From assembly GCF_044647545.1 (NCBI RefSeq), contig NZ_CP172818.1: a stretch of 64,000 bases of DNA; one strand, written 5' to 3'. The stretch is from Escherichia coli. Lineage in GTDB: Bacteria; Pseudomonadota; Gammaproteobacteria; Enterobacterales; Enterobacteriaceae. Positions within the stretch are counted from its first letter, which is position 1, and each line of letters starts with the position of its first letter. Of this stretch, positions 38,317 to 41,186 are shown in pieces. The translations under genes were made by a program, and so were the position numbers. The notes below the pieces were generated by a model, which worked only from the letters and a program-made list of their open reading frames with translations, made no database searches and was not told the DNA's origin.

Positions 38317-41186
38317 TTGCACGTTGGTTCTGGCGCGAATGGCGCTCGCCGTCGCTATTAATTGTCTGGCTGGCGCTAAGCCTGGCGGTGGCCTGCGTGC
38401 TGGCGCTGGGCAATATCAGCGATCGCATGGAGAAGGGCTTAAGCCAGCAAAGCCGGGAGTTTATGGCGGGCGATCGGGCGTTGCGCAGTTCGCGCGAAGT
38501 GCCGCAAGCGTGGCTGGAGGAAGCGCAAAAGCGCGGCCTGAAAGTCGGCAAGCAGCTGACTTTCGCCACCATGACATTTGCAGGCGACACACCGCAGCTG
38601 GCGAACGTCAAAGCGGTGGATGATATCTACCCGATGTATGGCGATCTGCAAACCAATCCCCCAGGCCTGAAACCGCAGGCGGGCAGCGTATTGCTGGCCC
38701 CACGCCTGATGGCACTGCTTAACCTGAAAACGGGCGACACCATTGACGTGGGCGATGCCACCTTGCGGATTGCCGGAGAAGTGATTCAGGAACCGGATTC
38801 CGGTTTTAACCCCTTCCAGATGGCTCCGCGTCTGATGATGAATCTGGCGGATGTCGATAAAACCGGAGCCGTGCAGCCGGGAAGTCGGGTCACCTGGCGC
38901 TATAAATTCGGCGGCAACGAGAACCAGCTCGACGGCTATGAGAAATGGTTGTTACCCCAGCTTAAACCCGAACAACGCTGGTACGGTCTGGAACAGGACG
39001 AAGGCGCGCTGGGGCGCTCGATGGAACGCTCGCAACAGTTCCTGCTGCTTTCGGCGCTTCTGACCTTGCTGCTGGCAGTGGCAGCGGTGGCGGTGGCGAT
39101 GAATCATTACTGTCGCAGTCGCTACGATCTGATGGCGATCCTCAAAACGCTGGGAGCAGGGCGAGCGCAATTGCGTAAGTTAATCGTCGGTCAGTGGTTG
39201 ATGGTGCTGGCGCTTTCAGCCGTTACCGGTGGTGCGATAGGCCTGTTGTTCGAAAACGTGTTGATGGTGCTGCTCAAGCCCGTTTTGCCTGCTGCACTAC
39301 CGCCAGCCAGCCTCTGGCCGTGGTTGTGGGCGCTGGGCACCATGACGGTCATCTCGCTGCTGGTGGGGCTACGACCGTACCGCTTGTTGCTGGCAACGCA
39401 GCCTTTACGCGTATTACGTAATGATGTGGTCGCGAACGTCTGGCCGCTGAAGTTTTATCTGCCGATTGTCAGTGTGGTGGTTGTGCTGCTGCTCGCCGGA
39501 TTAATGGGTGGCAGCATGCTGCTTTGGGCGGTGCTGGCGGGCGCGGTAGTACTGGCTTTGCTGTGCGGTGTGCTGGGCTGGATGCTGCTGAATGTACTTC
39601 GCCGCATGACGCTGAAATCGCTACCTCTGCGCCTGGCGGTTAGCCGCCTGTTACGTCAGCCGTGGTCAACGTTAAGCCAGCTTTCGGCATTTTCGCTCTC
39701 CTTTATGCTGCTGGCGCTGTTGCTGGTATTGCGTGGCGATCTGCTCGACCGCTGGCAGCAGCAGCTACCTCCAGAAAGCCCGAACTACTTTTTAATTAAC
39801 ATCGCCACAGAACAGGTAGCACCGCTAAAAGCGTTCCTCGCGGAACATCAGATAGTCCCGGAATCGTTTTATCCGGTGGTGCGGGCGCGGCTGACGGCGA
39901 TTAACGATAAGCCGACAGAAGGCAATGAAGATGAGGCGCTCAATCGCGAACTCAATCTTACCTGGCAAAATACGCGGCCCGATCATAATCCGATTGTCGC
40001 CGGTAACTGGCCGCCAAAAGCCGATGAAGTGTCGATGGAAGAGGGGCTGGCGAAACGCTTAAACGTTGCCCTCGGTGATACCGTGACTTTTATGGGCGAT
40101 ACCCAGGAGTTCCGCGCTAAAGTGACCAGCCTGCGCAAAGTGGACTGGGAAAGTCTGCGGCCTAATTTCTATTTTATTTTCCCTGAAGGGGCATTAGACG
40201 GGCAACCGCAGAGCTGGCTTACCAGTTTCCGCTGGGAGAATGGCAACGGCATGTTGACGCAACTCAACCGCCAGTTCCCTACTATTAGCCTGTTAGACAT
40301 TGGCGCGATTTTAAAACAGGTCGGTCAGGTGCTGGAGCAGGTAAGTCGGGCGCTGGAGGTGATGGTGGTGCTGGTCACCGCCTGCGGTATGTTGCTGTTG
40401 CTGGCACAGGTGCAGGTGGGAATGCGTCAGCGTCATCAGGAGCTGGTGGTGTGGCGCACACTCGGTGCGGGGAAAAAACTGCTGCGTACCACGTTGTGGT
40501 GTGAGTTCGCCATGCTTGGGTTTGTTTCTGGCCTGGTAGCCGCAATTGGTGCGGAAACGGCGCTGGCAGTGTTGCAGGCGAAAGTGTTTGATTTTCCGTG
40601 GGAGCCAGACTGGCGATTGTGGATTGTGCTGCCGTGCAGCGGTGCACTGCTGCTGTCGCTTTTCGGCGGCTGGCTGGGTGCGCGATTGGTTAAGGGTAAG
40701 GTGTTCAGTTGCGGGTGTGGAGCGCGCACAGGACGAGAGGGAGAGAGCAAGAGGGCGGGGGCAGCGAAAAAGGGGGGGAACAGGCGAAAAAAGAAACAGG
40801 GGGGGGAGCGGGGCCCCTACTGCGGTCGCCGCGCGCGGCCGGGGCGCCCCTGCGTGCCTCGTCCGCAGGCCGAAAGCGAAACTAAAGCAGATGAGTCTGC
40901 CCATTCCAAGTCACCAACTTGGGCGCGGAAAAAAAAAAAACGCTGCTCTTTTCCCATAGCTGTTGATCGCGGCCCGGACCCCGCGCGGGGACACCATATC
41001 AAAACCGGTAACTCTCAACCATTTCAAGGCATGTTCTCACGATCAACTCGCCGATATTCAGAATACCGCCCATCACTGCGCCTTAACCCATTCCGCCACT
41101 TCCGCCCACTCACCGCGAAAGACAACTTTTTCAGCTTTTTTCTCAAGCTGATAGCGATACATCGGGTCGTAATATTCTTCAAGTAA
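38313..41186 (+). CDS. ybbP: FtsX-like ABC transporter permease YbbP; ORF reads through into a low-complexity tract, native stop expected near 40725 (about 804 aa)
   Basis: First 800 or so codons form a credible polytopic permease beginning [37 protein letters not shown]; after about 40705 the translation becomes basic/G-rich nonsense and overlaps selU, so the last 460 nt are not believed to be genuine coding sequence. Confidence 0.8.
40705..40995. other. Anomalous G/A-run low-complexity tract at the ybbP 3' end (probable sequence/assembly artefact)
   Basis: Runs such as AAAAAGGGGGGG, CAGGGGGGGG, GGAAAAAAAAAAAACG; no codon structure; same character as the 26090..26347 tract. Confidence 0.6.

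Follow-up and report, generated by a model that had tools for sequence, protein, structure and literature searches.

The 64 kb stretch of Escherichia coli DNA analysed here (64,000 nucleotides; the window) extends from acrB to purE and comes from a clone of ST648 type. Between the genes ybbP and mnmH (selU) it carries a tract of simple sequence which, judged by comparison with related genomes, is most probably an artefact of how the sequence was produced, with a reference or a learned prior involved, and not a structure present in the cell. The origin in data production and the kind of pipeline or model concerned are what we infer from these comparisons. Three independent complete genomes of ST648 type (ECONIH1, DFL.5 and FDAARGOS_497) served as comparators. 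Outside its damaged spots the whole window differs from any one of them by 0–2 substitutions, and positions 32300–40701 (8,402 nt), which lead up to the tract, have no mismatch to ECONIH1 or DFL.5 (100.000% identity). At the position of the tract itself the three genomes carry, verbatim, one and the same sequence of 615 nt, and this sequence is almost certainly the isolate's true ybbP–mnmH junction. In NZ_CP009859.1 the native ST648 sequence lies at 541742–542357. No genome covers the tract: of 5,426 complete E. coli genomes, the 5,420 that match align at the two flanks only. Assemblies of the same clone thus lack the tract and agree with each other on a different sequence. The original prediction, made from the letters of the window, had called the span non-biological and of technical origin; its absence elsewhere, the identical flanks and the native 615 nt all support that view. 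Alignment to other E. coli and to K-12, which it had proposed as a check, found the tract in none of them and the 615-nt sequence in the three ST648-type genomes. The same tract in unrelated E. coli assemblies, which it had named as evidence to the contrary, was found in none of the 5,426.

The damage begins at the first wrong base, 40702, and ends at 41056, where the last of four extra bases (41043, 41047, 41054 and 41056) is found. The tract had been placed at 40705–40995; its presence there is confirmed, and the limits proved too narrow on both sides. All four simple-sequence strings quoted for it were located within it: AAAAAGGGGGGG at 40767–40778, CAGGGGGGGG at 40797–40806, GGCCGGGGCGCCCC at 40837–40850 and GGAAAAAAAAAAAACG at 40927–40942. 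The T-free run in the tract (Table 1) compares with a next-longest run of 44 nt in the window; by our own calculation, at 24% T about 3e-8 T-free runs of 99 nt are expected per 64 kb. The A-free segment that follows contains GC-rich direct and inverted repeats, and an inflated A-run further right reaches A12. Homopolymers of at least 8 in the window are confined to this tract and to a second one at 26096–26342 (the sister tract), barring one natural A8. Reference sequence from a related genome holds a single run of 8 in 80 kb, and nothing in those 80 kb is a counterpart to the 99-nt T-free run or to the A27 and C11 of the sister tract. With its reduced alphabets and long homopolymers, the composition is far beyond chance and impossible for the host genome.

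Table 1 Features of the tract, of its neighbours and of two further damaged spots, in window coordinates
Feature	Position	Strand	Basis or remark
Corrupted span, 355 nt, replacing 615 native nt	40702–41056		Unaligned to any of 5,426 genomes
Lossy ybbP 3′ end, native CGCTGTTCAGGCAGTTTGCGGGGTGA read as TGTTCAGTTGCGGGTG	40702–40718	+	Deletions only; stop codon gone
T-free purine/G-rich run, 99 nt, with G7 and G8 homopolymers	40719–40817		Longest T-free run in the window
A-free GC-rich run, 47 nt, with palindromic GC strings	40820–40866		Longest A-free run in the window
Native-spacer remnant (native CACCAAGTCTTGGGCGGAAAAAATAAAAAAAC), A-run inflated to A12	40912–40941	+	Collinear position
IS481-family end fragment, 41 nt	40990–41030	+	95–98% identity to sites in 3,080 genomes
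ST648/IS481-type allele hybrid, ST648 sequence plus four extra bases	41031–41056	+	Five-way alignment
ybbP, intact codons 1–796	38313–40701	+	Base-identical to ST648-type genomes
mnmH (selU), intact	41073–42167	-	Protein identical to the ECONIH1 protein
Sister tract, progressively degraded RelE/ParE-family toxin gene upstream of ybaQ (higA-like)	26096–26342	+	Register-preserving against the native gene
A-rich filler, 13 nt (TTAAAAGAAAAAA), for a 2,567-nt island between cueR and ybbJ	32287–32299		ST648-type comparison

Searches for the tract elsewhere returned one real match. When the tract by itself was used in a distant BLAST search of E. coli genomes, plasmids and phages, the 41-nt IS481-family end was the only hit, and on this basis an insertion of foreign DNA or of a mobile element was rejected for everything else. 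A 48-mer from the tract had no exact match in the GTDB species representatives or the JGI metagenomes. The claim that no natural E. coli sequence looks like this accordingly holds for the genomes searched. Over 40990–41110 no genome among the 5,426 exceeds 88.8% identity, and a natural alternative allele near mnmH was rejected for this reason. No Rfam family matched 40300–41400 at E ≤ 1, which leaves neither a repetitive extragenic palindrome (REP), or mosaic element built of such repeats (BIME), nor a known small RNA in that interval, and neither a promoter-like nor a terminator-like site was found within the tract. An engineered FLP recombinase target (FRT) scar was considered, and no FRT sequence was visible on reading the tract, although no search aimed at it was made. 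Natural contingency loci, with their phase-variable homopolymer tracts, offer a further comparison. The G7, G8 and A12 runs at a gene 3′ end are reminiscent of them; unlike such loci, the site has no homologous tract, conserved or variable in length, in any E. coli genome searched, and here conserved DNA has been replaced.

The sequence that the tract displaces is a structured one. The native 615 nt comprise the last eight codons and the stop of ybbP and a 593-nt ybbP–mnmH spacer, with 22 nt adjoining mnmH. They contain REP-like repeats, a DinQ-like open reading frame (ORF) and two terminator copies, and a truncated IS481-family end abuts mnmH. In the spacer an AgrB-like RNA is present at full length (Rfam RF02891; 53.6 bits, gathering score 40), and REP-derived Rfam families match it as well. 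We note that at positions 35031–35356 of the ECONIH1 locus, the native counterpart of 40702–41056, the dinQ/agrB-like module lies between two copies of one terminator. Its minus-strand dinQ-like ORF ends in VLIILKALIALLELIRQFIE directly before the stop, and K-12 DinQ ends in ALIALLELIRFLLQLLN. By these features the module resembles an additional copy of the DinQ type I toxin system that has gone unannotated. The IS481-family end beside the mnmH stop of ST648-type strains is short and degenerate (35362–35402 of the ECONIH1 locus; 41015–41066 in the window), and K-12 and O157 carry a longer IS481 remnant (ylbG) at the same mnmH-adjacent place. Since short and longer remnants occupy one site, the rhsD-bearing and rhsD-free arrangements appear to share an old IS481 insertion.

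Aligned to this native sequence and to K-12, the tract resolves into parts of different derivation. Once its T's are deleted, the native spacer gives a weak collinear alignment to the T-free run (p ~0.003–0.01 against random E. coli segments); the ST648 spacer treated in this way scores 41, and the K-12 sequence that follows ybbP, likewise stripped of T's, scores 40. Within the A-free segment ACTGCGGTCGCCGCGCGCG aligns with native ACTGACGGATCAGTTCCAGCAGCGCG, bases having been dropped. The remnant at 40912–40941 has a local alignment score of 36 against 18.2 ± 2.1 for shuffles (z = 8.7). Collinear degraded remnants of the true sequence are in this way recovered at both ends of the tract and at 40912–40941, with a fainter resemblance in the centre. 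The 41 nt at 40990–41030 are of another kind. PK8568 has a frameshifted IS481-family transposase locus whose end matches them at 97.6% identity, the ylbG–selU junction of O157 and K-12 matches them at 95.2%, and the piece is also found on plasmids and on phage RCS47; it is missing at this site in the three ST648-type genomes inspected. The identification as an IS481-family end applies to 40990–41030 only. Taken together, these alignments indicate that the tract is chimeric, being made up of degraded native sequence, junk and part of another real allele, a mixture that occurs in no sequenced genome. A consensus drawn from mixed strains was also considered and is unlikely, as no K-12-type single-nucleotide polymorphism (SNP) occurs anywhere in the collinear DNA.

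The tract is one of several damaged spots in the window, and their positions carry much of the argument. Because the coincidence of K-12 BLAST block ends with the errors was partly an effect of alignment trimming, ST648 was compared with K-12 directly and independently of the window, and the association of damage with ST648/K-12 divergence persisted. This comparison yields exactly eight non-homologous segments in the span of the window, 5.6% of its bases. Set against the genomes of ST648 type, the window shows nine anomalies of the indel kind and, beyond these, 0–2 SNPs. Damage is found in 8/8 of the segments, all nine anomalies lie inside one or at most 32 nt from one, and in 5/8 the errors set in exactly at the segment's first base; ordinary alignable ST648/K-12 indels of 1–31 nt were copied correctly. 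The smaller lesions are single-base losses at 8100 and 8105 (mscK–rsmS), a 3-nt loss at 15847 (adk–hemH), 7 nt lost at 19343–19350 (gsk–ybaL), 1 nt lost at 25990 and a 14-nt loss at 54013 (glxK–allE) that takes out a terminator T-run. Those at 8100/8105, 15847, 19343–19350 and 54013 fall in terminator hairpins and spacers, each inside an ST648/K-12 non-homologous segment. At 26721–26722 a 19–20-nt loss coincides exactly with the segment after ybaQ in which ST648 and K-12 differ; the ybaQ stop goes with it, and the protein gains 9 residues. Between cueR and ybbJ a short filler overwrites the ybbJ stop and stands in for an island which in the nearest genomes encodes a YadA-family adhesin and three hypothetical genes. 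A natural island-free allele at this junction was rejected, the best full-length identity among the 5,426 genomes being 87%. Three conserved genes (ybbP, ybaQ and ybbJ) lose their stops to the damage; the 796 YbbP codons and mnmH are unchanged. A clone with 0–2 SNPs in 64 kb would not naturally gather nine indel events in its lineage-specific DNA, two of them reduced-alphabet junk and one bringing in part of another lineage's allele, and this argues against the span as a real feature of the cell. The damage lies in, or within 32 nt of, segments that are not shared with K-12 and is accompanied by reference-type alleles, and this tracking of non-homology, together with the blending of alleles, suggests that a reference or a learned prior guided the process.

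Damage in the sister tract is graded and runs in one direction. In the original prediction it was placed at 26090–26347 and taken to share a technical origin with the tract between ybbP and mnmH; its limits are 26096–26342, and the two are alike in style and different in sequence. The shared style supports a common origin. Fidelity to the native toxin gene declines from 1.0 to 0.5 from left to right and returns abruptly to 1.0 at 26343. G's are lost first, the sequence then turns to poly-C and finally to poly-A (A27 and A21, with C11 also among the runs). Isolated G's are retained at 14% and A's at 86–100%, runs outlast single bases, and most substitutions are to A; the RelE-like ORF is destroyed. 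This pattern resembles a fading four-channel signal, as in the read tails of Sanger or Illumina data with decay and phasing: fidelity falls in one direction, isolated bases are replaced by their neighbours or by A while runs survive, and one base dominates at the end. It could accordingly be proposed that plain low-quality base calls, from decaying read tails or from a poor gap fill or bridge with no reference or prior at work, produced both tracts. The early loss of single G's, the register that is kept, the abrupt recovery and the reduced-alphabet runs of both tracts are all consistent with this, and the GC content of the garbled native segments (42–45% against 51%) could mean low coverage. 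Noise, however, cannot yield a 41-nt match of 95–98% to another real allele, nor a hybrid of alleles. It gives no account of why 8/8 ST648-specific segments were struck, often from the exact first base, and leaves the clean loss of the 2.57-kb island unexplained; in the chimeric IS481 allele, the link to K-12 non-homology and the island loss the window departs from ordinary read tails. We consider low-quality calls on their own a rather unlikely cause. The corrupted or low-quality span, or synthetic fill, originally suggested for the tract is therefore upheld as an artefact and not as simple low base quality, given the 41-nt IS481 allele and the hybrid.

Deliberate synthetic filler, in which chosen spans were overwritten (by masking, redaction or a planted decoy) with sequence unrelated to the native DNA, appears very improbable. 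The tract is unique to the window, and two of the overwritten spots hold toxin genes (one of the RelE/ParE family, the other the DinQ-like ORF with its AgrB-like RNA). The sister tract is nevertheless in register with the native gene, and the tract beside mnmH keeps collinear scraps. The accompanying deletions of 1–20 nt in terminators and spacers are unlike masking, and the lengths (330 for 593 nt, 13 for 2,567 nt) obey no simple rule.

For the dependence on a reference or prior, which we favour, a mechanism can be outlined in general terms. The producing process would copy the chromosome base-perfectly where ST648 is collinear with K-12-type E. coli and would fail at the non-homologous segments that are ST648's own. 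There it may drop bases, collapse to reduced-alphabet or homopolymer sequence, skip ahead, or slide onto the K-12-type allele. Candidates for such a process are a reference-guided or hybrid consensus and a sequence model copying or reconstructing a genome. Both are compared with the window below by their general behaviour. The artefacts of reference bias in reference-guided or hybrid assemblies resemble the window in several respects: they are perfect where sample and reference are collinear, with errors setting in from the homology breakpoints; a large sample-specific insertion is lost (here the 2.57-kb island); reference-type bases are blended in (the IS481-end fragment and the four extra bases); and small alignable indels are correct. 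Such artefacts normally take the form of N's, reference sequence or clean deletions, whereas here a 99-nt T-free run and an A27 are seen, and the tract starts 32 nt ahead of the breakpoint. Moreover, K-12 and O157 read gacacTcatatc where the window reads gacaccatatc, and neither matches as the reference.

Degenerate output of a neural model is alike in other ways. The glitches run from left to right and arise at lineage branch points, with skipping ahead; the collapse into homopolymers and reduced alphabets is gradual, and motifs are echoed (AAAAAGGGGGGGAACAGG and AAACAGGGGGGGGAGCGG). The sequence re-locks on a shared caacc.ttt motif and the commoner K-12-type allele intrudes. On the other hand, fidelity to the strain at the level of 0–2 SNPs over 64 kb would call for a template and not free generation, and a 31-nt ST648-specific insertion in the ybcF–purK spacer was copied without error. 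There is no sign that any model touched the window sequence.

Several observations weigh against an artefact that depends on a reference or prior. The case for an artefact is comparative throughout. The tract starts 32 nt before the point at which ST648 and K-12 diverge, within shared sequence, and the deletion at 15847 sits 15 nt inside its segment and not at the edge. The central part (40719–40911) is weakly similar to any template (p ~0.003–0.01), and equally so for ST648 and K-12. Neither a mapping pipeline nor a model predicts the details of the T-free (99 nt) and A-free (47 nt) runs, and neither accounts for the early start of the tract. Under natural selection indels would be expected to cluster in intergenic DNA, and their location by itself is no proof.

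The consequence of the damage for ybbP is a read-through. The ORF in the ybbP frame extends over 38313–41186 (957 aa). Residues 1–796 match those of ECONIH1 YbbP (804 aa) exactly, and the native tail of that protein is LVKGKALFRQFAG followed by the stop; the last 161 aa of the ORF product are rich in R, G, K, S, A and P and have no native counterpart. The ORF overlaps the convergent mnmH by 114 nt, stop included, and the undamaged ybbP stop would be at 40725–40727. These values bear out the original reading of the gene closely: about 800 credible codons followed by about 150 basic, Gly/Arg/Lys-rich ones, an overrun of 113 nt into selU, and a native YbbP of about 804 aa with its stop near 40725. 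The tract does derail the 3′ end of ybbP as proposed, the loss of the stop and the read-through of 161 codons into mnmH being a result of the damage. The gene-position index has no entry for the exact 957-aa YbbP, and a natural stop-loss or extended variant finds no support there.

A genuine allele, that is real DNA left by error-prone repair or replacement at the ybbP–mnmH junction and encoding a C-terminally extended YbbP, has to be weighed at this point. The contents of the junction do vary (rhsD in K-12, the IS481 remnant, the dinQ-like insertion in ST648), which makes it a natural hot spot, and the 41 nt on the right come from a real mobile element of E. coli. For a genuine origin, a clone with 0–2 SNPs per 64 kb would nonetheless have to have undergone several odd events independently of one another, all of them in DNA non-homologous to K-12, three removing conserved stops and none seen in 5,426 genomes. 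The 99-nt T-free, A27 and C11 runs would remain without counterpart in the 80 kb of reference and the 957-aa YbbP without precedent in the record. We regard this as extremely unlikely. The same slight chance applies to the specific form in which reduced-alphabet DNA, for the most part untemplated, would recently have taken the place of the dinQ/agrB-like spacer, leaving the tract as one of several scars at lineage-specific loci of the clone; if true, it would fuse 161 extra codons onto YbbP.

As an artefact of sequence production the tract has no biological significance and matters as quality control. At least nine damaged spots in 64 kb silently remove real content. What is lost or destroyed includes the RelE/ParE toxin gene, the type I toxin module of dinQ/agrB kind, the 2.57-kb island that encodes a YadA-like adhesin, and three stops; annotation, pangenome or toxin–antitoxin surveys that use the record would report spurious gene fusions and spurious absences. 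Because the damage tracks lineage-specific DNA, a practical diagnostic follows for the source record: DNA that is not collinear with K-12-type E. coli should be distrusted.

Two minor observations are of another nature. Position 63725 of the window is T, against C in FDAARGOS_497 and K-12, and gives PurE Ala82Thr; Thr82 is widespread and is also found in DFL.5, so the change is a natural polymorphism and not damage. A related 5.1-Mb assembly, GCA_029964605.1 (JARWMK010000001.1), has split or truncated genes for an usher, AllG, an M20 peptidase and LpxH; its errors are indels in coding regions and differ in kind from the damage in this window.

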